From a virus, in IMG/VR virus record IMGVR_UViG_3300029892_000002: DNA of 20,564 bases; one strand, 5' to 3'. Position 1 is the stretch's first letter. Each line of letters begins with the position of its first letter. The notes under the pieces are model-generated. The model did no database searches. It was not told where the DNA came from and was given only the letters and a program-made list of their open reading frames with translations. The position numbers and the translations under genes are program-made. Below, piece by piece: positions 805 to 13,291 of the stretch.

Positions 805-2925
805 TCATGTATAATTAGATACCAAACTACCAGATTTAACAAAGAATCCAAGTGACTCAAGAATGATGCGATATACCAATGTAAGGTCTATGGCTATTTT
901 CTCAATATCCATGATGGATCTGATTTCCTGAGGAACACCATGTGATTGAACATACTCGGATGGTAGGTATATGGTATTCAGATCATTCTTTTTCTTTCTT
1001 ACTAACCACTCAACCATGGCTTCTCTCATCTTTACATTAGGAAGAGAATCCACCCATTCTTTCAGAACTGTTCTGTTCCTGAGTTTGGTTGGTATGATGA
1101 GAGTTCCAAATGGTGGTGGGTTAATAGGACCATATGCATGTTGATATACTTCTAACCAGAGTTTGTAGTGCTGATATGGTGATTCGTCTTCTGGTAGTGA
1201 GTATGCGCTAGCATCTTTGATCTTGGATTGTTTTAGGTATTTCGACTCACCAGACCTAAGCGATTCCATGACACTGCGCTCAATGTCTTGAACTCGCTTG
1301 ATATATTTCAGTAACTCTAGCGGTTGGTTCTGACTTACTGTTGTAAGTATCTCAGTAATCATCGCATGAGCTCCTTTGATTAAGTCAGGAGGAGCTGCTG
1401 AGTTCTTGAGATGAACACCTTTGATCTCAAGACTGGGATTAGCAAAGACGTTACCTTCTTGCACCACAGTCCATGCTGCATAGTGTTTAGCAACGTTAGT
1501 TGGCATGTGAACTGTCCAGAGAAACTCATTCTTCATAGCTAGATCATGAAGCATTTCTCTTGGAACATTGATGTTAGCTGAAAGAATAGCTAATAGATGA
1601 GATACTGCTTGTGTTGCTATGAAAGCCACAGCACCACAGACGGCAAAGGTTTCTTCACTGAAATTGATCTTACCAAAATACCATAACATCCAGTCATCGG
1701 TAGAGAAACAGGTAGAATCCGTATCGGATAATACCACCGACCTACGCATCATGGAACGGATGAACGCATGACTGGCTGGAACCATCTTGGTTAGGAAAAA
1801 CGCTTTGATGAATAAGTCATAGTCCTTGAGAACTTGTGCTATGTTCTCAGATGTAAGTACCAGCATACAGACTGTCTCATAAGGCATCTTGGCATAATCT
1901 TTACCTTTACCTCTGAGATCATTATAACCAATTTGATGAGCGTAGTTTAAGATTTGTTCATCGATGGACCAGATCTTATCTAGAGCATTTTCAACATGCC
2001 CGGTGCACTTCTTACTGAGTCTATTAATGAACTCCAACATGAAGTCATTATTAAGTACACGTATGCGATATAGGTCACCTATGTAGCAGAAGGCTGCTCT
2101 TTCTATATCGTCCATCTTTTCCACATAAGCTTGGATGCGCTCCATAGCTAGTGGGTTCTGGAAATAGAACCTAGTGGAGTATTCTATACAATCCATAACT
2201 TCCTGTACTGTAGGAATATGGAGTTTATAATGCTCTATGGCTTGTTTGATTTCATCTCTATCTATCTCTGTGCAATAACAATTGAGATTATAGAGAACGA
2301 TATCCTCGTTATAGTAATGACGATTACCCATCACTACACGTTCATTGGAGGCGTTGCCAAAAGAACTCACAGATCTAATCGTAGAGGTAAGTGAACTATG
2401 AGCAGTTGGGTTATAAAATACCGAACCCTTACTACCAAATGCTCCAGACATACTGTTGTTATAGTTCTTCATGTTCTTCTGTTCATTGTCCTTCATGATG
2501 AACAGATCATTATTACCGGCTGCTTTAGCTTTGAATCCTTCTTTTTTAGCTTGGCTTCTGCGTTTCTTATTACCTTCTACGAATCCAACTAGCTTAGATG
2601 GTATCTGGGTTGGGTTCTTATAGCAAGTAAAGGTTGGAGCCAGGATAAGATCTCTCTTAACCAAGGTATCTATATATCTAGATAGAGAGATATGATCAAC
2701 TAATCTATCGCCATTATCACCACGATGAAAGAACTTCACAACTGGGTTTTTGATACCAGATTGCTTACTAGTGATCACATGCCTTACGAATTCTTTACAT
2801 TGGTCGATGGGATCACCGGACATCTTACTGATATACATAGCAGCCTGTTCAAGATAATGATTGATAGGCTGTATGTCTCTTTGGTAGTATTCTTTTTCCC
2901 TAAGAAATAGCTGTTGCTCTGACAT
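805..2925 (-). CDS. phiKZ-type family B DNA polymerase, catalytic (palm/thumb) subunit, gp050-like
   Basis: 706 aa. Motif B variant KNYNNSMSG and motif C VVLSDTDS, followed by K-H-Y-A and LEIKGVHLK. No exonuclease motifs, consistent with the split polymerase of phiKZ-like phages. Syntenic with phuZ. Confidence 0.9.
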   Translation of the reverse strand: MSEQQLFLREKEYYQRDIQPINHYLEQAAMYISKMSGDPIDQCKEFVRHVITSKQSGIKNPVVKFFHRGDNGDRLVDHISLSRYIDTLVKRDLILAPTFTCYKNPTQIPSKLVGFVEGNKKRRSQAKKEGFKAKAAGNNDLFIMKDNEQKNMKNYNNSMSGAFGSKGSVFYNPTAHSSLTSTIRSVSSFGNASNERVVMGNRHYYNEDIVLYNLNCYCTEIDRDEIKQAIEHYKLHIPTVQEVMDCIEYSTRFYFQNPLAMERIQAYVEKMDDIERAAFCYIGDLYRIRVLNNDFMLEFINRLSKKCTGHVENALDKIWSIDEQILNYAHQIGYNDLRGKGKDYAKMPYETVCMLVLTSENIAQVLKDYDLFIKAFFLTKMVPASHAFIRSMMRRSVVLSDTDSTCFSTDDWMLWYFGKINFSEETFAVCGAVAFIATQAVSHLLAILSANINVPREMLHDLAMKNEFLWTVHMPTNVAKHYAAWTVVQEGNVFANPSLEIKGVHLKNSAAPPDLIKGAHAMITEILTTVSQNQPLELLKYIKRVQDIERSVMESLRSGESKYLKQSKIKDASAYSLPEDESPYQHYKLWLEVYQHAYGPINPPPFGTLIIPTKLRNRTVLKEWVDSLPNVKMREAMVEWLVRKKKNDLNTIYLPSEYVQSHGVPQEIRSIMDIEKIAIDLTLVYRIILESLGFFVKSGSLVSNYT

Positions 2926-3182
2926 TATCTATCCATCCCAGCCATGAACTTTCTCAATATATCCTCAACAGTAGAAACAGGAGCAGGTCTAAATTCAGCT
3001 ACATCTGTATGCTCTACATCAACCAAACCAACATCCTTGTATAGACACAAACAATCACCTAGATCGTTACGCTCAAGTACTGGTAGTTCTTTGCCGGCTA
3101 TATCTTCTATTTTACCGTGGTGAAATATAGTTTCAGTTGGTTTGTCGACTATTCTACACCAGCCAATTATTCTACCGATCAT
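2925..3182 (-). CDS. Hypothetical protein (85 aa, MIGRIIGW...)
   Basis: ATG at 3182 is preceded by AAAGGA. The stop overlaps the polymerase start (TAATG). The longer 187-aa track version crosses a terminator and an opposite-strand gene. Confidence 0.7.
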   Translation of the reverse strand: MIGRIIGWCRIVDKPTETIFHHGKIEDIAGKELPVLERNDLGDCLCLYKDVGLVDVEHTDVAEFRPAPVSTVEDILRKFMAGMDR

Positions 3183-3224
3183 TTTCTTGTCCTTTCTTCT
3201 TAACCAATCGATGTGATTAGTGGC

Positions 3225-3259
3225 AAAAAAAGAACCCACCCCGCTTTTGCGAGGTGGGT
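3225..3259 (-). terminator. Intrinsic terminator
   Basis: Minus strand ACCCACCTCGC-AAAA-GCGGGGTGGGT (11 bp, one G-U) followed by TCTTTTTTT. Confidence 0.8.
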
Positions 3260-3280
3260 CTAAGCCTAACAAGGGAGACG

Positions 3281-3532
3281 ATGAAACAGAAAGACTTCCT
3301 GGTTTATGGCCAGGAAGTAAAATCGGATGCAATCGCGAGATACATCCGGAGGAGAAGCCGGTTAGGGAGGGGAAGGAGCAAAGCGAAGGATGCGATGTAT
3401 ATCGACCTGACTGTCGATGATTGTCCTCAACACACACAGGAGACGATAGTGGTGAGGTATCGGTTGCTTGATGGGCCGCAGTACCCAAAGCTAATCGCTT
3501 CGATCGCCAGATGGAGGGCTTGCCTCAGATAG
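3281..3532 (+). CDS. Small basic hypothetical protein (83 aa, MKQKDFLVYG...), antisense to its neighbours
   Basis: AAGGGAG precedes ATG 3281. Fills the gap between two minus-strand genes, has an Arg/Lys-rich patch RYIRRRSRLGRGRSKAK, and is GC-richer than its flanks. Confidence 0.55.
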   Translation: MKQKDFLVYGQEVKSDAIARYIRRRSRLGRGRSKAKDAMYIDLTVDDCPQHTQETIVVRYRLLDGPQYPKLIASIARWRACLR

Positions 3533-3561
3533 CTCCTTCCCCAAACCAATCATACAACAGA

Positions 3562-3957
3562 CTAAGGATTCATCTGCTGCATGGTAAATTTATATCCCAT
3601 AGAATTCAGTACATCGCGAATTTTATTCATGTCGGTATCATCAATATCAAAAACCGAAACAGACAGGTTGATAGACTCAACTTCGACTATGGAATTCTCA
3701 ATGATCCATGGGTATGCTAAAACGGACTTGATTCCAGCTGACGACTCAAAAAGTAAGTATGTATAATCAGCTGTTCTATCAGGAGTTCCTGCTGGTAGTA
3801 ATGGGAAGATTTGCCGTTGCAGAACATCCACATTACTATGCTGTTTGGCAGTGTTATAACCAACTATACCTATTACCCGCATTTGTTTAAATGCATCGCT
3901 AAACAATGCAGGTGCATAGGTTGTGAAGTTATATAACCGGTTCAGATTGAAGAGCAT
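3562..3957 (-). CDS. Conserved phiKZ-like hypothetical protein (gp049-like position, upstream of the polymerase)
   Basis: 131 aa. YNFTTYAPALF...LPAGTPD...YLLF...YPWI pattern and position match, from memory, the small conserved gene that precedes the polymerase in this phage group. Confidence 0.7.
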   Translation of the reverse strand: MLFNLNRLYNFTTYAPALFSDAFKQMRVIGIVGYNTAKQHSNVDVLQRQIFPLLPAGTPDRTADYTYLLFESSAGIKSVLAYPWIIENSIVEVESINLSVSVFDIDDTDMNKIRDVLNSMGYKFTMQQMNP

Positions 3958-4408
3958 GTTGTGCCACTCCCAGGATTAAGAAATCAACAGCTATACGTTC
4001 AGGATAAACCTGACGTCCATCCAGGAGATTATACTCCCTTAGTCGCTGCCAGATGTTATATGCCAATTCACTCATGACCGATTTCAAAACCTGGTATAAT
4101 GGATCCCTAAGATTGTCTGTAAGTAAACCAAGCTCAGGGTTTCCACATTTCCACATTCTGTTTACATCAGGATAATTAGTCATGTTAGTCCAAAAGATGT
4201 TCAGATCAGCATCTATTATCTCAAATATCTGATACAACATTTCTTGATATATCAGACCAACACCATGTCCAAGCTCACTGGGAGTGAAGCGAGCTTGGAC
4301 TTCTGGACTATTCGTTAGTTTATTGAAAAGGTACGGTGCAAAATCAGCTATAGAGATGACTACAGCTTTTCTCTCATAGCTTTGATTATGAGATTGGTAC
4401 TGCATCAA
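3929..4408 (-). CDS. Hypothetical protein (159 aa)
   Basis: ORF overlaps both neighbours in a co-oriented operon. Confidence 0.8.
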   Translation of the reverse strand: MMQYQSHNQSYERKAVVISIADFAPYLFNKLTNSPEVQARFTPSELGHGVGLIYQEMLYQIFEIIDADLNIFWTNMTNYPDVNRMWKCGNPELGLLTDNLRDPLYQVLKSVMSELAYNIWQRLREYNLLDGRQVYPERIAVDFLILGVAQHALQSEPVI

Positions 4409-4826
4409 GATCCTCCGGACATCTGATATGCATCAGAACCAACCCATGGTTAACTATCGTGGCATGGTTATAGAACTGGAGTTCGTCTGGATTCGATTTG
4501 AACATATCGCAAATATGGTCAATGATGTCAGACATTTCCTTACCTGCTTTTCTAAGGATAAATCTTTCATCGATCTCAGACTCATCACCGGAGTCTGGTT
4601 TCAAAAGACCCATTTTGCTATAACTGTGTAGTTCATCAAATATGCTAGCCAATGCCAGGATTGGATCTTTCAACATATCCAAAAGGATACTAGCAAACGC
4701 GTCAGTAGAACCAGGCTCAATACAAACACCATTGGTAGTGATGCTGTAATAGATAGTATCCCTGATGTCAAATGGAAGTCTTATGATAACCACGCGATAG
4801 AACTCTGGTTTAAAAGTTGGTTCCAT
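4386..4826 (-). CDS. Hypothetical protein (146 aa)
   Basis: AAGGAG ribosome-binding site upstream; operon packing. Confidence 0.8.
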   Translation of the reverse strand: MEPTFKPEFYRVVIIRLPFDIRDTIYYSITTNGVCIEPGSTDAFASILLDMLKDPILALASIFDELHSYSKMGLLKPDSGDESEIDERFILRKAGKEMSDIIDHICDMFKSNPDELQFYNHATIVNHGLVLMHIRCPEDLDAVPIS

Positions 4827-4838
4827 GTTCTTGTCTCC

Positions 4839-5228
4839 TTAATATTCTTGCTGTCTCTCTACTAGGTCTCCAGTGTAATAGAACGCTACTATCCATGGGC
4901 CTAGGAATTTACTGAATACATACAATTCTTGATGACGGTATACTTTACCAAAAAACTTATCCATGTAGTGATCTAAAACAGACCTTACATCCTCAATGGT
5001 TATCTCAAGGGCCTGAAGATCGTATTCCGAAAGATTACTCAACTCCATGACTTTCTCAAGCCTTTCCCATACTTCTGTATCGTAAGGACCATAGGGATAG
5101 GTCATGACGATGGTATCAACAACCGTCTTATATGCTTCATTTGTAAACCTGGTGGCTGGTTGGTATTCTTTCAGTGGACTATAATCAATAACAACCAGTT
5201 TAGGGAAATTAGTCGTCGTATGATTCAC
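4839..5228 (-). CDS. Hypothetical protein (129 aa)
   Basis: GTG start after GAAGGA; overlaps the end of the upstream gene. Confidence 0.8.
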   Translation of the reverse strand: MNHTTTNFPKLVVIDYSPLKEYQPATRFTNEAYKTVVDTIVMTYPYGPYDTEVWERLEKVMELSNLSEYDLQALEITIEDVRSVLDHYMDKFFGKVYRHQELYVFSKFLGPWIVAFYYTGDLVERQQEY

Positions 5229-7671: not shown

Positions 7672-8637
7672 TTAAAGCACAAGACCTTCTTTAGTAGTTT
7701 GAATGGAGTTATCGACGATGGAACGATGAACGAACGCAGAGCGCGTGTCATCGGCTTCACGCAGACGAGCATCCAAACGGTGAGCGATCTCAGCAAAAGC
7801 ATTAGCCACCAAGACCATGTGAATCGGCATGTTAAAGGTAGTGTTCTGCTTAACAACACTAGGCAAAAATCCAACTGCCTGATATTCGATCGGATGTTTG
7901 ATATCAGCAGACTTATCCTCATCGGTAAGAGTAACTACACCAATGATAGCCTCGTCCTTATTGAGAGTGATTTCATGACCGTCAAAGAAATCAAGCTTAA
8001 CCATGGACGGTTTATAAGACGTGACCTTGGGATAGTTCAAGAAATGTTGAAGGTCAGCAGTATCAAGCTCGCGATGCTTACCAGAGAAGAACAGCGAGGT
8101 CATGATGACATGCATGCGAACTTGCTGATCAACACTACCACGAGGGTTACTTGCTGAGTTTTCGAAATACGTAACAGCGATCGGCACACCAGTTGAATCA
8201 CTGATAGCTGCATAAGACTTGAGAGTCTTAAGAGTGTTTTCGATCTCGATACGAGAACCAGTCGAACCGATCAGAGTAACGGTAAGAGGACGACCCTTCT
8301 TAACCAACTCACTAACAAGAACGGGTGCGATCACAGAACCAGATCCACCAGAAGCAGAGTGAATAACGTTGATGATATCAGGGGTCCCGATCTTTTGTAC
8401 GAGTTCCTTAGCCCGCTCAGAAATTTGTTCGTAGTTGACAGCACGGAGTTTACCAGAACCATCCATGCCATCAAAGAGATAAACCTTACTTGGATCGAGT
8501 TTATCTGTAAGATTGCTACGAGAAGTATCAACAGTGAAGACATCGATTTCTGCGTAACCGGCTTCACCAGTGTTGACAAAATGCTGGGCCAGGTTGATGC
8601 CTGCTCCACCACAGCCAACTACACACATAGTGCTCAT
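7672..8637 (-). CDS. phuZ: PhuZ phage tubulin
   Basis: 321 aa. T1 loop GCGGAGIN, VDTSRSN, DGSGK, tubulin signature SASGGSGSVIAP, T7 loop ELDTAD, and a PhuZ-like C-terminal tail ending EGLVL. Confidence 0.95.
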   Translation of the reverse strand: MSTMCVVGCGGAGINLAQHFVNTGEAGYAEIDVFTVDTSRSNLTDKLDPSKVYLFDGMDGSGKLRAVNYEQISERAKELVQKIGTPDIINVIHSASGGSGSVIAPVLVSELVKKGRPLTVTLIGSTGSRIEIENTLKTLKSYAAISDSTGVPIAVTYFENSASNPRGSVDQQVRMHVIMTSLFFSGKHRELDTADLQHFLNYPKVTSYKPSMVKLDFFDGHEITLNKDEAIIGVVTLTDEDKSADIKHPIEYQAVGFLPSVVKQNTTFNMPIHMVLVANAFAEIAHRLDARLREADDTRSAFVHRSIVDNSIQTTKEGLVL

Positions 8638-8652
8638 ATTTTCTACCCTTTC

Positions 8653-9132
8653 CTAAGTTAGACTCACTAATTTTTGAAGCTGTTTCCAGCGACTTACTAC
8701 CTTCTCGCTGTATCCTTTCGTCCCTCCGCCATTATAGCAAGTTAGAGCTTTGGTGATATTACGCTTCTTCTTGAAGCATTCAAAATATACCATAGCTCCA
8801 ACTTCTGCATTGACGTGAGGATCCATTACATTTCGCCCTTTGATTTTAGCTCTGTGCCAGTATGGTACTACTTGCATAAGACCAACTGAACCAGATTTGT
8901 TTTTAAGGTTAGGGCGATAACGCGTCTCCTGTTCCATGATGGCTAACAACAAGTAAGGATCGATGAGAGTTGTTGGTATGTTTTTTACCACATCTACTAT
9001 CACCATAGCCTGGTCTTGTGTTAACTTCATGTAATTTTGAAGATATTCATCCAGAGACATTTTATTTCCTGAGTATGTCAATGGAGAGAGCGTCAGTAAT
9101 ATGACGAAGATAAGCTTGTGGATAAAGTGCAT
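8653..9132 (-). CDS. SLT-domain lytic transglycosylase with N-terminal signal peptide or anchor
   Basis: Catalytic AIMEQETRY, GLMQV and ALTCYNGG motifs. The likely start is ATG 9132 (MHFIHKLIFVILLTLSPLTYSG, hydrophobic leader) rather than 9216. Confidence 0.88.
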   Translation of the reverse strand: MHFIHKLIFVILLTLSPLTYSGNKMSLDEYLQNYMKLTQDQAMVIVDVVKNIPTTLIDPYLLLAIMEQETRYRPNLKNKSGSVGLMQVVPYWHRAKIKGRNVMDPHVNAEVGAMVYFECFKKKRNITKALTCYNGGGTKGYSEKVVSRWKQLQKLVSLT

Positions 9133-9338
9133 TGGATTTCCTATTCCCAAGTTGAAGAAAAGGTTGTTGCTATAGAGAACTCCTTTTAAGGAAGGTTTGG
9201 ATATTCTTGATACCACCAGCGTTTCCTGTTAGGGAAGCGTTGGTGATATCTCCACAGAATGCCAATCGGTAAGTTTTTTCTAAATACCAATTAGCCAGAT
9301 ACTACACGTATTAAATATATACCCATATAGGTTTCTAT

Positions 9339-9376
9339 TAAGCAAGAAAAAACATCTAATCATATATAGCGAATGA
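9339..9376 (+). promoter_or_regulatory. Degenerate third copy of the promoter-like motif
   Basis: CATATATA-N5-TGA (9361-9376) has the same spacing as copies 1 and 2, and an upstream A-tract as in copy 1. Confidence 0.4.
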
Positions 9377-9445
9377 ACACTGCCGAAACCGCATGGTATA
9401 TGTACTAAAGGCTATACTCGATCTTTTATTGCTATTGGTTAGGAT

Positions 9446-9476
9446 ACTTAAGATAGTCTTCTTGACTATCTTAAGT
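9446..9476. repeat. 13-bp perfect inverted repeat
   Basis: ACTTAAGATAGTC-TTCTT-GACTATCTTAAGT, imperfectly extendable outward. Confidence 0.9.
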
Positions 9477-9522
9477 TCATCCTTAGCCTATTAGGTATAT
9501 ATTAACTCGCTCATTCCTAGGT

Positions 9523-9558
9523 TAGACTATATGTTAGCTCAAACTAACATATAGTCTA
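9523..9558. repeat. 15-bp perfect inverted repeat
   Basis: TAGACTATATGTTAG-CTCAAA-CTAACATATAGTCTA. Confidence 0.9.
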
Positions 9559-9666
9559 TGACCATGGTTATGTACGACATATCATCATTGACATACCCGT
9601 GTAGGTAAAATATTTCCAAACCCTTATCATATTTTGGAACTAGTAGATTATCGAGCGCAGGAAGGA

Positions 9667-9697
9667 ACGGAGTCGAAGACGGAGTGGATGACGGAGT
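9667..9697 (+). repeat. ACGGAGT x3 with an exact 12-nt period
   Basis: Copies at 9667-9673, 9679-9685 and 9691-9697. Confidence 0.9.
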
Positions 9698-9871
9698 GAG
9701 CTAGCTTATCTTTATCTTTAGATCTAGCCAATGTTAAGCCTAATAGGAAGCCATGGATATGGTGCCTTGGCACCATGGTTATAATAATATGGTGTGTACG
9801 TCATTTCTATAAATACAATAATATCCGTGGTTATACAAGAAGAATAGCAGTAACCAGTACTACCAAATAGT

Positions 9872-9908
9872 CCATCGATGCCGGCTCTTGGTGAGCTAGC
9901 ATCGATGG
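9872..9908. repeat. Inverted repeat/hairpin upstream of the 9961 gene
   Basis: CCATCGATGC (9872-9881) / GCATCGATGG (9899-9908), with an inner GCTC/GAGC pair. Confidence 0.8.
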
Positions 9909-9960
9909 TTAAATACCTGAGTGTGTCGAGATCATCTGGACACTATAGATGGAGGCTAAC

Positions 9961-10500
9961 ATGCCTGTTTTTGATCTGAATAAATACCAAGACGACGATA
10001 AGCTTAAGGACAATGCCGTTGCTGCTACTAATGACCAGTTGCAACAACAATCCCAACAAGAAACAAACACTAATGCTAATAATGACATTGAGGAGGCTGG
10101 TGTGATCATATCTGGTCCGTTGTCTAAGGTTTATGCTGAAGCTCTTCATAAGGTATTTGAAGGTAGCAAAGTAGCTGCTATTGAATCTACCAGTCAAATG
10201 GCTGGTATGATCTTGTACATGGGAGGTAAGTTAGCTGGTGGTGAAATTGAAAGCCAGCCTGCTGTTGTCTATGTTGATGATGGTAAGAACATGGATGAAA
10301 ATACCAACCAGTCGTTTGATGGATTGAGACTGGCGTTGGATCAAAAAGGTAGGAAGTATGTTGTATTTGAAAACCTTGATGGTAGTTTGAATAATAAGAC
10401 GGGTTTAGTTGTAGAACATGCCATTAAGTATGCTGATAAGGTTTTCTATAGCAGGGAAGCTTTCATGAACTTTATTAAACCAAATGAGGATAAAGAGTAA
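9961..10500 (+). CDS. Hypothetical protein, possible virion head protein (about 179 aa)
   Basis: GGAGG at 9951-9955 favours ATG 9961. Acidic, Q/N-rich N-terminus and an A-I-E-S site resembling the S/A/G-X-E prohead-protease cleavage motif of phiKZ-like head proteins. Confidence 0.75.
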   Translation: MPVFDLNKYQDDDKLKDNAVAATNDQLQQQSQQETNTNANNDIEEAGVIISGPLSKVYAEALHKVFEGSKVAAIESTSQMAGMILYMGGKLAGGEIESQPAVVYVDDGKNMDENTNQSFDGLRLALDQKGRKYVVFENLDGSLNNKTGLVVEHAIKYADKVFYSREAFMNFIKPNEDKE

Positions 10501-10523
10501 CCACCGCAGTGGTTGTTTTGTTT
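10499..10523 (+). terminator. Possible weak intrinsic terminator
   Basis: AACCAC-CGCA-GTGGTT followed by GTTTTGTTT. Confidence 0.5.
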
Positions 10524-10543
10524 AAAACAGGAGATAGTTGGTC

Positions 10544-11461
10544 ATGGATGAAATAAGTAAAAAGAAGTTTATCCAGGAACATAAGTTTGAACGTGGGATG
10601 GCTTTGATACCTGGTATCGAAAATATCATTGCTGTAAGTAGTGGTAAGGGCGGGGTTGGTAAGAGCACTGTAGCTGTTAATCTAGCTTTGGCTTTGAGCA
10701 AGATGGGTAAGAGAGTTGGGATATTGGATGCCGACATCTATGGCCCGTCTGTTCCTAAGATGTTGAAGCTAGATGGAGCTCATCCTACTAGTAGTGATGG
10801 TATGCGATTAGACCCTCTTGAGTCATATGGACTGCAGGTGATGTCCATGGGACTGATGGTTGATGAGACTACTAGTATGAGCTGGCGTGGTCCTATGGTC
10901 ACTATGGTCCTTAAACAATTACTAACAGAAACCAATTGGAAAGATATAGATTTTCTAGTTGTAGATATGCCTCCCGGTACTGGTGATATCCCTATCACTA
11001 TGGCTAAACAAATGCCATTGACTGGTGTGGTGTTAGTTACCACACCTCAAGATATCGCTCTGATCGATGTTCTCAAAGGTATGAAAATGTATGAGAACAT
11101 GGGTGTGCCTATTTATGGTGTTGTTGAAAACATGAGTGTTCATGTTTGTACTGACTGTGGTAAGGTTGAGCATATCTTTGGTCAAGGAGCTAGTAAACGG
11201 CTCAAAGAAGAACATGGTGTTGAACTATTGAGCTCATTACCTTTACATATAAGTATATGTGAACAGACTGATAAAGGCAACCCTACTATGGTTGCTGAAC
11301 CAGATGGTGTTCATGCTCAGATGTATACGCTCATAGCCGAGCAAGTAGTGGATAAGACACCAGAAAAGGTTTTATCTCCTTTCTATCAGGATATGCTTGA
11401 TAGGATGTGTGCTGGTGTTGAGGATCAGGGATGTCAGGATATGAGTTCTGATGTTAGTTAA
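10544..11461 (+). CDS. apbC: Mrp/ApbC (NBP35 family) Fe-S cluster carrier P-loop ATPase
   Basis: IIAVSSGKGGVGKST deviant Walker A, GILDADIYGPS, WRGPM, VDMPPGTGD, VTTPQDIAL, and ENMS-x3-CTDCG cluster-binding CxxC. The start is ATG 10544 (AGGAG upstream) or TTG 10538. Confidence 0.95.
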   Translation: MDEISKKKFIQEHKFERGMALIPGIENIIAVSSGKGGVGKSTVAVNLALALSKMGKRVGILDADIYGPSVPKMLKLDGAHPTSSDGMRLDPLESYGLQVMSMGLMVDETTSMSWRGPMVTMVLKQLLTETNWKDIDFLVVDMPPGTGDIPITMAKQMPLTGVVLVTTPQDIALIDVLKGMKMYENMGVPIYGVVENMSVHVCTDCGKVEHIFGQGASKRLKEEHGVELLSSLPLHISICEQTDKGNPTMVAEPDGVHAQMYTLIAEQVVDKTPEKVLSPFYQDMLDRMCAGVEDQGCQDMSSDVS

Positions 11462-11478
11462 TACAAAAGGACGTTATC

Positions 11479-12711
11479 ATGGATGAGTTAACACTTAAGG
11501 AAGCTTTCGATGAATTGATGGGTAGCCAGAAATTCGATAGCCGTATGGCTAAAAAAGCTAAGCTGTTCCAGGTTCAGTTCGTTCATGATAACCATGACCA
11601 TCGTGCTTTCTTTGGTGGTAACTTGATCGGTGTACATCGCATCAGGTTTGTTTATAACGATTACACTCGTTATTTTAACGATGTGGTTGATGTAGATGAA
11701 GATGTGGTATTGAATCAAGTTAGAAGAGTTACCACTATCAACCATGACTTTAAGATCTCTGGCGATCCGATGAACTTGACTGTGATGTATCAAGTTCATA
11801 GGTTCATGACGAGTCCTTATTTGAATGAAAAAGCTAGGATAGATGCTTGTAGGGATGTAGTATTAGTATTCCTATATCGTAGTATAGCGGCTTTACTGGC
11901 TCATTATTTCAAATACCCTATCGATACTGAAACCGCTCAGGCTGTCTATGAACGATTAAGTGGTAGGTATTTGATTAAGAAACTTGGTACATGGCAGGCT
12001 GTGTTTAACTATAGGGCTGATGAGTTCATAGGTAAGGAATCAGTACACATCCAGGCAGTGATTAAATTCAATGACGATACTGCTATAGTAAATGCTATCA
12101 ATGATCTACAAGGCCGTATCAAGGATATGCTTAAGAACATTTATGCTGAGTTCATCCATGTACATGAACATGGTGGTAAGATAGGTAGTGGATCTGCTAC
12201 CATGATCGATGCAGATGGTGAAGAGATCGTTAAGGATAAAGTTCATGGACTGGAGTCATATCAGCACTACATCCTGAGTGTGGTTGGTGATAGGAATTCT
12301 TTTTATAAACAAGAGCTGGTTGATGTTGTGGCTAAAGTTATACCAACTGTCCATGGTAAAGCTTTTCCTCTAATACTTGACTGGATGACTAGTGAGTTGA
12401 ATTCAGACCATAGAGAACAGATCAGTAAGTTCATCGAACATGTTCTTAGTATGGCTTACAATTATCTCTTGGAGAATGAATATGTTCTTCATAGATCAAG
12501 GGATATCTTACTACTGACTAGTAAATTAAAGGGATTCATTCTGAGTTCTCGTAGTAATTCAGAGGAACTTGAGATATTCCGTAAGGAAGGTGATGCTATA
12601 GTTAAAGCATCATCCAAACAAAGTAATAACCAAACAGTGGCTGCTCTTAGGAATGGATTATTCTTATACATTTCCCTAAGAGCATTTACAAAACACGCAT
12701 ATGGTGGATAA
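11479..12711 (+). CDS. Conserved phiKZ-like protein, probably virion-associated (410 aa)
   Basis: Long ORF with an AAGGA ribosome-binding site. FFGGNLIGV and YF-x-YP...LSGRYLIKKLGTW recall a conserved jumbo-phage family found near terminase and phuZ. The function is not assignable from sequence. Confidence 0.65.
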   Translation: MDELTLKEAFDELMGSQKFDSRMAKKAKLFQVQFVHDNHDHRAFFGGNLIGVHRIRFVYNDYTRYFNDVVDVDEDVVLNQVRRVTTINHDFKISGDPMNLTVMYQVHRFMTSPYLNEKARIDACRDVVLVFLYRSIAALLAHYFKYPIDTETAQAVYERLSGRYLIKKLGTWQAVFNYRADEFIGKESVHIQAVIKFNDDTAIVNAINDLQGRIKDMLKNIYAEFIHVHEHGGKIGSGSATMIDADGEEIVKDKVHGLESYQHYILSVVGDRNSFYKQELVDVVAKVIPTVHGKAFPLILDWMTSELNSDHREQISKFIEHVLSMAYNYLLENEYVLHRSRDILLLTSKLKGFILSSRSNSEELEIFRKEGDAIVKASSKQSNNQTVAALRNGLFLYISLRAFTKHAYGG

Positions 12712-12755
12712 AAAAAATAACATCCCCGGAGCCTATGGTGGCTTCCGGGGATGTT
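12710..12755. terminator. Terminator between convergent genes
   Basis: AACATCCCCGGA-GCC loop GGC-T-TCCGGGGATGTT. The A-run at 12710-12717 gives a U-tail for the minus-strand transcript. Confidence 0.8.
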
Positions 12756-12756
12756 G

Positions 12757-13104
12757 TCAGTTGATCGAGACCGACTGTTGCTGTCGGCCAAGTTCACCGT
12801 ACTTCAGGTACTTGGTGGCTCGGCCGTTCTCAATCGCAACGAAGCGTTGCATCATGGCCTTCTTGGAAACCTCTTCGAATGAGAGATTGCAATCATCCAG
12901 CGAAGGTACCACAGAGAATACGTATCCAGCCAGTAAAGCACCAGTGAAATCGCGGACATCCTTCACTTCAACGACACTGATGCCGCACGACGGTATGATC
13001 GTCAGTGTGTCGAGGAATGCTACCAACGACCCTTTGATGAGGTCGTCCGAGTTGGCAATAATACTCCCAACGACCTGCTGGAACACCAATTCTTTTGTTT
13101 CCAT
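12757..13104 (-). CDS. Hypothetical protein (115 aa), probable early gene
   Basis: AAGGAG ribosome-binding site. Lies between promoter-like motif copy 2 and a terminator, and is GC-richer than the core genes. Confidence 0.75.
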   Translation of the reverse strand: METKELVFQQVVGSIIANSDDLIKGSLVAFLDTLTIIPSCGISVVEVKDVRDFTGALLAGYVFSVVPSLDDCNLSFEEVSKKAMMQRFVAIENGRATKYLKYGELGRQQQSVSIN

Positions 13105-13291
13105 TTACATCTCCTTGTAGTTGATTTAATCTAACACGCTACTCGCCGTGTGTTATGGCGGCATTATTTTACTCCCGCTTGCCAGCGCTATCCGTCATCC
13201 GAGCTTTTGAAGTCCCTTAGCAAGGAATAATTCGAATCTCACCATAGCGTAAAGAACAAGATATTTCCTCCTAAACAAATCGAGCTGGCTA

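Follow-up and report, generated by a model that had tools for sequence, protein, structure and literature searches.

An N-terminally truncated ApbC/Mrp-type Fe-S carrier ATPase gene in an uncultured, putatively nucleus-forming jumbo phage

The bacterial ApbC/Mrp proteins are ATP-dependent carriers of iron-sulfur (Fe-S) clusters. ApbC forms homodimers, and the CxxC motifs of the two subunits probably ligate a single bridging [4Fe-4S] cluster between them; the protein hands clusters to apo-proteins, and its Walker A lysine is required in vivo, probably for cluster loading (PMC8593673). Archaeal ApbC/Nbp35 homologues are reported to act like Salmonella enterica ApbC (PMC2946596). Phages carry auxiliary genes of Fe-S biogenesis as well, including iscU and erpA (PMC9038755) and sufE and nifU (PMC8940887). 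Here we describe a gene for an N-terminally truncated ApbC/Mrp-type protein, referred to below as phage ApbC, in IMG/VR virus record IMGVR_UViG_3300029892_000002. The window, that is, the whole stretch of 20,564 nucleotides analyzed, is entered as positions 1-20548 of this 27,448-base record, which is estimated to be 10% complete. Like phage ApbC, the known phage Fe-S genes (iscU, erpA, sufE, nifU and sufA-type) encode single biogenesis components, and they have been read as boosters of cluster supply (PMC9038755, PMC8940887). They specify scaffolds, A-type carriers and sulfur-transfer partners, whereas phage ApbC belongs to the ATP-dependent Mrp/NBP35 class. In the literature, of which our coverage is incomplete, we found no description of an Mrp/ApbC gene in a nucleus-forming jumbo phage.

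An earlier note, made from the sequence alone, had placed an ApbC gene at 10538-11461. The reading frame is indeed present on the plus strand and runs without interruption, but its start is better placed a few bases downstream. A TTG at 10538 would give a protein of 307 residues, but just 4 nt separate it from an AGGAGA box upstream. We consider the ATG at 10544 more likely, since its spacing from the box is 10 nt and the resulting 305 residues equal the length of the database protein P0002, which is 100% identical to phage ApbC. Residue numbers refer to the 305-residue form unless the 307-residue form is stated. The features of the gene are as follows.

10544..11461, plus strand: coding sequence of the N-terminally truncated ApbC/Mrp-type Fe-S carrier ATPase, 305 residues (PF10609, NF008669, P0002)
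10529..10534, plus strand: Shine-Dalgarno-like AGGAGA, 10 nt 5′ of the ATG at 10544, read from the sequence
10643..10666, plus strand: deviant Walker A motif GKGGVGKS, residues 34-41, invariant across the aligned relatives
10964..10987, plus strand: DMPPGTGD (Walker B/switch II region), residues 141-148, followed by IPIT, from the alignment
11147..11158, plus strand: CxxC motif CTDC, residues 202-205, invariant across the aligned relatives, with its role in the family taken from PMC8593673
11258..11260, plus strand: Cys239, a third cysteine specific to the clade of phage ApbC, Arg in bacterial ApbC and in other viral short forms
11348..11458, plus strand: acidic C-terminal tail, residues 269-305, with Cys289 and Cys297, from the alignment, a helix predicted with low confidence

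Phage ApbC is a genuine ApbC/Mrp-type P-loop protein with a cluster-binding CxxC and without the N-terminal domain. It matched the Pfam family PF10609 at 2e-96 (322.6 bits against a cut-off of 27.1) and scored 356.3 bits with the NCBIfam ApbC equivalog NF008669, above the curated cut-off of 348. Both GKGGVGKS, which follows the deviant Walker A definition GKGGhGK[ST] (PMC6345978), and DMPPGTGD are as expected for the Walker A and Walker B/switch II motifs of ApbC/Mrp. The earlier note's description of a near-canonical core with intact Walker A and CxxC was thus correct. So was its observation that the N-terminal domain is missing. The NF008669 match is confined to profile positions 100-350 of 369, and since it begins at position 100, the PF01883 (FeS_assembly_P/DUF59-like) domain is absent; about 90-100 N-terminal residues of full-length ApbC have no counterpart, and before the first strand only a short linker helix remains. 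PF01883 is listed for the full-length bacterial relatives, but neither for phage ApbC nor for its closest short relatives, P0003-P0007. Short Mrp chains occur naturally, as in the archaeal structures 2ph1 and 3kb1, which have 262 residues and match phage ApbC; PF01883 is therefore a usual part of proteobacterial ApbC that some members of the Mrp class do without.

Compared with the bacterial proteins (Salmonella enterica ApbC, E. coli Mrp, NF008669 and the structure 8zkc), phage ApbC has the core and all three motifs in common, at 54-61% identity. It differs from them in lacking the PF01883 domain of about 90-100 residues, in having Cys239 for a near-invariant Arg and Ala216 for Gly, in its acidic 37-residue tail, and in its setting, a gene of a lytic-type jumbo phage with 41.6% guanine plus cytosine (GC) against a bacterial median of 64.7%. 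Among the columns that are near-invariant (at least 95%) in 93 bacterial ApbC proteins, it retains 80 of 91. An AlphaFold2 model had a mean predicted local distance difference test score (pLDDT) of 78.7, and its top Foldseek match was the ApbC structure 8zkc (E 1.6e-30, root-mean-square deviation 1.7 Å over 250 columns, 54% identity). The same structure is also the closest by sequence (1.7e-90).

The earlier note offered a different reading as well, in which a MinD-like ATPase was repurposed for positioning of PhuZ or of the phage nucleus. Indeed, phage ApbC shares with MinD, ParA and Soj the SIMIBI fold and a dimer-type deviant Walker A, and Foldseek also returned MinD, Soj and FleN, far behind 8zkc, at E 1e-12 to 1e-14. 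That phage ApbC is a positioning ATPase of the MinD/ParA kind, taken over for the phage nucleus, PhuZ filaments or DNA, nevertheless seems very improbable to us. The MinD and ParA profiles stayed well under their cut-offs (minD_bact, 47.8 against 212.9; PRK10818 MinD, 25.7 against 508; ParA_partition, 42.8 against 180), as did a MipZ-type model, whereas the ApbC profile was above its own. The Mrp-specific CxxC is invariant in the clade. The gene encodes no basic amphipathic membrane-targeting helix of the MinD type, and its tail is acidic, with 8 D/E against 3 K/R. No MinE-, MinC- or ParB-like partner gene was found among the neighbors, which are orf183, phrog_2921, an SLT gene, PhuZ and the large terminase (TerL). 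The PhuZ gene lies 1.9 kb away, and this proximity, which spoke for the positioning idea, is accounted for by the site of insertion described below.

By its gene content, the source is an uncultured phiKZ-like (Chimalliviridae-type) jumbo phage of putatively nucleus-forming type. The record carries PhuZ tubulin (phrog_4733), a phiKZ-like divergent family B DNA polymerase and a large terminase, together with the DUF7193/phrog_3184 and phrog_3430 virion proteins, a tail sheath, an HNH endonuclease and a dCTP deaminase. Its best cultured relatives, jumbo phages of Ralstonia, Burkholderia and Xanthomonas, share no more than 33-38% protein identity with it. GC content is 41.6% in the ApbC gene, and 34.6% at its third codon positions (GC3); the median GC of 80 bacterial ApbC gene cores is 64.7%. 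Its synonymous-codon fit to the other pooled genes of the contig, -1.005 per codon, is among the best in a range of -0.93 to -1.24, in line with the phage-like codon style that the earlier note had pointed out. Databases list the identical protein on 4 contigs, of up to 85 kb. Because of this phage-like composition and the recurrence on four contigs, we consider it unlikely that the gene is a contaminant, a product of chimerism or a very recent capture from a GC-rich host.

The gene sits within a block of conserved phage genes, and the following neighbors define its position.

9949..10500, plus strand: orf183, conserved upstream partner gene, whose stop in relatives overlaps or abuts the start of phrog_2921
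11479..12711, plus strand: phrog_2921, 410 residues, conserved in chimalliviruses, 17 nt downstream of the ApbC gene
7672..8637, minus strand: PhuZ tubulin gene (context), divergent from the orf183-ApbC-phrog_2921 block

The two closest large IMG/VR contigs, of 203 kb and 165 kb, are 57-60% identical to the record in phrog_2921, terminase and other proteins. Both have the layout PhuZ (minus), a gene of 159-162 residues (plus), phrog_2921 (plus) and terminase (minus). The 162-residue gene of one relative is the homologue of orf183 (37% identity, E 3e-30), and in the relatives its stop overlaps the phrog_2921 start in an ATGA. In the window, about 980 bases separate orf183 from phrog_2921, and they hold a hairpin, the ribosome-binding site, the ApbC gene and the 17-nt spacer. 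No PF10609 gene was present anywhere on the two large contigs (61% and 75% complete), and none of 66 chimallivirus-like IMG/VR loci had an ApbC homologue within 5 kb of phrog_2921. An orf183 homologue was recognizable at five of these 66 loci and adjoined phrog_2921 at all five. A tblastn search of 50,697 phage records gave 28 with a match, none of them a jumbo phage; phrog_2921 is present in 290 records (cultured chimalliviruses), and none of these had the gene. The ApbC gene is therefore an accessory insert between two core genes and not part of the core set of the phiKZ group; the earlier note did not know it as a standard gene of that group either. The flanks are phage genes, as the note also had it, and one of the two carries a virion or head protein annotation in some phages.

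The note also stressed that the gene is near tubulin. It is, at 1.9 kb, but on the opposite strand and beyond the SLT gene and a 730-bp spacer, and the distance follows from the insertion site, since the relatives share the PhuZ/orf162/phrog_2921 layout without ApbC. Nothing links the ApbC gene to the nearby tubulin gene.

An accessory insert could be a mere passenger, a recent neutral pick-up drifting to loss, or an artefact of assembly. The gene is absent from all other chimalliviruses examined, and the region also has an extra SLT gene and a long spacer, as a passenger or artefact would allow. The composition, however, is fully phage adapted, the frame is intact with its conserved columns retained and a short terminal branch, the gene is preceded by a ribosome-binding site of its own and lies close to the genes on either side, and the identical protein is found on 4 contigs. 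We regard a passenger or artefact as largely refuted, with little chance left to it.

A search of 5.8 billion proteins showed that phage ApbC has relatives of the same truncated kind. After P0002, the best matches were five short proteins (P0003-P0007) of 282-318 residues without PF01883, from Logan, ENA and JGI assemblies (uncultured). They are 59-68% identical to phage ApbC by BLASTP over aligned portions of 83-92%, and 57-63% identical across the whole alignment. Next came full-length betaproteobacterial ApbC proteins at about 60% (Azovibrio, Denitratisoma, Georgfuchsia, Casimicrobiaceae and Burkholderiales). Phage ApbC and P0003-P0007 formed a clade with 99% support in both trees that we computed, where support is the Shimodaira-Hasegawa-like approximate likelihood-ratio test (SH-aLRT) from quick searches. 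Derived residues mark this clade: MSWRGPM where bacteria have MVWRGPM, VLKG where bacteria have A.KG, and GD(I/V)(P/S)IT where bacteria have GDIQLT. Two substitutions, G216A and R239C, occur in every one of the six members, but neither in bacteria nor in the viral short forms outside the clade; column 239 holds Arg in at least 95% of 93 bacterial ApbC proteins, so that the clade has a third conserved cysteine. Since P0003-P0007 share the truncation and the derived residues, we infer that they are phage encoded too.

All six members have Walker A, DMPPGTGD and CxxC unchanged, and the clade mates retain 79-81 of the 91 near-invariant columns. The terminal branch of phage ApbC, 0.22-0.23, is the shortest in the clade. 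Invariant motifs, conserved columns kept at 57-63% identity and a short branch together indicate purifying selection, not decay. Two features singled out earlier are less telling than they seemed. GTGDIPIT is present where proteobacterial proteins have GTGDIQLT, but it is not special, being widespread in other Mrp lineages: a metagenome scan with DMPPGTGD[IV]PIT gave 54 loci whose identity over long alignments did not exceed 48%, none of them a close relative, and because it occurs at these distant loci the motif is not specific to the phage clade. A scan of IMG/VR with the single protein gave no matches. The acidic tail with two extra cysteines is likewise real, but Cys289 and Cys297 are unique to the phage ApbC sequence and thus not conserved. 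The tail is partly common to P0007 (LSPFYQDML and LEPYYQEML), and a search with the tail alone (residues 262-307) found nothing but phage ApbC itself.

The clade-specific cysteine suggests a more particular role, that of a specialized carrier or chaperone for one phage protein or compartment, for example an enzyme in the phage nucleus, in which the third cysteine and the unique tail would change cluster handling or targeting. Apart from the fixation of R239C and G216A in the six clade members only, the loss of the N-terminal domain fits such a role, as does the position of the insert, probably co-transcribed with a conserved pair of which one member is labelled a virion or head protein in some phages. 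In the model, strand 230-235 (307-residue numbering) is followed by a helix with Cys239 at its start, and the CxxC is predicted at the end of the preceding long strand, so that both may lie at the same edge of the sheet. Neither the 27 kb at hand nor two family searches of the relatives, however, yielded a client, phrog_2921 has one cysteine and orf183 none, and the tail is not conserved. We consider a specialized carrier unlikely, though it is the strongest of the competing explanations.

Auxiliary supply of Fe-S clusters, already proposed in the earlier note, is the best-fitting reading: phage ApbC is probably an auxiliary carrier that raises or redirects cluster delivery during infection. 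It is the best supported because the residues of ApbC chemistry are conserved and phages are known to carry Fe-S components; judged from the alignment, the phage clade has kept all the residue classes that this chemistry requires. By analogy with bacterial ApbC, the phage protein would be a working P-loop ATPase of the ApbC/Mrp class that dimerizes. A labile [4Fe-4S] cluster would be bound on the CxxC pairs of two subunits and passed to apo-proteins. The insert is probably co-transcribed with the flanking core genes, and the added delivery would serve Fe-S enzymes on which the phage depends during infection, which would be its benefit from the gene. These clients may be encoded by host or phage, and host enzymes are as likely as phage enzymes. 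Phage ApbC probably belongs to a phage-borne ApbC lineage that lost PF01883, and its own sub-clade gained a third conserved cysteine.

Several points weigh against an auxiliary carrier. A cysteine-motif scan of all open reading frames (ORFs) on the 27-kb record yielded no convincing Fe-S protein, and searches for the Radical_SAM and Cas4 families were negative in the record and in the two closest relatives. The relatives lack the gene, so it is dispensable for this type of phage. Loss of the N-terminal domain and R239C could alter partner choice or cluster chemistry. Finally, gene content is known for about 10% of the genome, and function is read from sequence and a model. The cysteine-rich orf139 (12701-13120) was considered as an Fe-S client and rejected, as it looks like a wrong-frame ORF.

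A carrier could also work against the host. Phage ApbC might form heterodimers with host ApbC or compete for ISC/SUF clusters, and so divert or stop host Fe-S delivery. Its dimer-forming core is about 61% identical to betaproteobacterial ApbC, and the domain it lacks is thought to be accessory in the bacterial protein. A simple poison subunit, however, needs none of the catalytic and cluster-binding residues that appear to be kept under purifying selection, and other lineages have short Mrp proteins as a normal, working form. Such a dominant-negative take-over is improbable, somewhat more so than a specialized carrier.

An alignment-based scan of IMG/VR gave 78 loci, none above 56% identity to phage ApbC. 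Mrp genes are commoner in phages than the earlier note had assumed. About half of the 78 loci encode full-length, host-like proteins on contigs from isolate genomes. The remaining loci encode short forms of 250-290 residues; none of the chimallivirus markers tested was found on the contigs with short-form ApbC. One group of short forms, on contigs that reach 329 kb, belongs to a conserved gene cluster in T4-like myoviruses, with a T4 neck protein and gp15 a few genes away. The short phage proteins (L045-L070, L002 and L048) resemble phage ApbC in lacking the N-terminal domain, in keeping Walker A and CxxC, and in the isoleucine of GD-I-x-I-T. The T4-like and other short forms differ from it in being only 42-56% identical, in belonging to other phage types, in having a different conserved gene cluster, and in retaining Arg239.

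The T4-like cluster is seen at L058:9079-11687 and also at L045, L050, L055, L060, L061, L063, L067 and L070. Two genes always flank the short Mrp there: one for a protein of about 311 residues with a weak heptosyltransferase-like match, the other for a protein of 307-314 residues that has a G.PGS.RK motif and numerous invariant His, Asp and Arg positions but lacks a conserved cysteine. A sulfotransferase gene is nearby.

Full-length genes have a different history. The Escherichia phages Cyrano, PhiR41_1 and CMS-2020a (about 108 kb) likewise have an Mrp/ApbC gene in a phage record, but unlike phage ApbC the protein is full length (about 366 residues), retains the N-terminal domain and is near-identical to enterobacterial chromosomal Mrp. 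In Cyrano (L221, OV696614.1 89738-93029; 108 kb) it forms a host-like pair with metG, divergent as in the host chromosome, and the record labels mrp "MinD." Because mrp is still beside metG, the Cyrano-type gene is a recent capture of a host block. Some 30 IMG/VR contigs of 50-114 kb, from isolate genomes, carry the same mrp as Cyrano.

In an LG+G4 tree, all viral short forms, including the clade of phage ApbC, fell into one group with 96% SH-aLRT support. A quick search under a mixture model separated them, but a mixture-model search in which they were constrained together was better than the free search by 30.9 log-likelihood units, with a P value of 0.861 in the approximately unbiased (AU) test. 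In the best topology in hand, all viral short ApbC proteins would thus be one phage-borne group, with the caveat that their branches are the longest in the data set. This suggests that truncated ApbC genes are a phage-borne lineage spread across several kinds of large phage. The donor is another matter. The LG+G4 tree put the viral clade beside Alphaproteobacteria, while the mixture-model tree put the clade of phage ApbC outside a group of Alpha-, Beta- and Gammaproteobacteria. Forcing it together with Betaproteobacteria cost only 1.3 log-likelihood units (AU P value of 0.469). We tried to name a bacterial donor from the phylogeny and abandoned this, as the trees disagree and the AU test does not reject the union with Betaproteobacteria. 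The hint at a host that the earlier note hoped for from phylogeny is accordingly weak: Betaproteobacteria give the highest identities, but the clade does not fall within them in the tree.

A bolder account is that phages maintain a long-lived lineage of truncated ApbC that moves between unrelated families (T4-like, other large and jumbo phages), and that R239C, by the cluster site, retunes the carrier of our sub-clade for a phage-specific job, such as maturing Fe-S proteins for or in the phage nucleus, which excludes the host machinery. We put this forward as speculative, with a low probability.

Nucleus-forming jumbo phages keep their DNA metabolism apart from the host cytoplasm. To our knowledge, little is known of how cofactor-dependent enzymes are supplied in these phages, and a phage-encoded ATP-dependent Fe-S carrier would offer a concrete handle on this supply. 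The protein family, its chemistry and the idea of phage Fe-S auxiliary genes are already established. What is new is a phage-adapted, truncated ApbC in a jumbo phage of the putatively nucleus-forming type, where it is rare, which extends the known Fe-S biogenesis genes of phages to the Mrp/ApbC class; it is a further case of a known phage habit, with one unexplained feature, the extra cysteine of the short-form clade.

The edges of the insert have some minor features.

10499..10514, plus strand: small hairpin, AACCACCGCAGTGGTT then GTTTTGTTT, between the orf183 stop and the ApbC start, weak in a shuffling test

This hairpin may be a weak terminator, an attenuator or a scar of the insert edge. 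We rejected the terminator reading, as the fold is no more stable than that of shuffled sequence (z -0.25), and for the same reason the hairpin is weak evidence. The ApbC start (10542-10556, TCATGGATGAAATAA) and the phrog_2921 start (11477-11491, TCATGGATGAGTTAA) are equal at 13 of 15 positions. Both proteins begin MDE, and the matching starts bracket the inserted gene. They could reflect microhomology at insertion, or chance; chance is possible because five further repeats of similar size lie within the same 2.5 kb.

The region between the divergent blocks varies between relatives, since the SLT gene and the 730-bp spacer are not in the closest relative. The gene with the SLT lytic transglycosylase domain (8653-9216, minus strand) directly adjoins PhuZ, and the closest relative, L081, has no ORF of at least 80 residues at its position, which may make it another accessory gene of this variable region. 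The AT-rich 730-bp spacer (9217-9948) separates the SLT/PhuZ block from the orf183-ApbC-phrog_2921 block and contains three strong inverted repeats (9446-9476, 9523-9558 and 9872-9908). It is probably a divergent regulatory region. Downstream of phrog_2921, the 139-residue ORF at 12701-13120 (plus strand) is rich in Cys, Ser and Thr and resembles a wrong-frame translation. A 115-residue ORF at 12757-13104 (minus strand) overlaps it and has no Pfam match, and the relatives carry unrelated small genes 3′ of phrog_2921.

Composition is not uniform along the record. Beyond the window, the tail sheath and virion structural genes (L080:1530-3650 and L080:5275-6153) have a GC of 48.8% and 49.5% and a GC3 of 54% and 52%, respectively, while the rest of the L080 contig is clearly lower, at about 39-41% GC. 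The higher values may be the codon bias of highly expressed late genes. In a related phage, L082 (IMG/VR 3300001594_000002, 2211-4882), PhuZ is split, with residues 1-98 and 99-321 encoded 1.7 kb apart. The gap holds an ORF of 411 residues with NUMOD4, HNH_3 and NUMOD1 domains, so that the interruption looks like an intron bearing a homing endonuclease or a similar insert.

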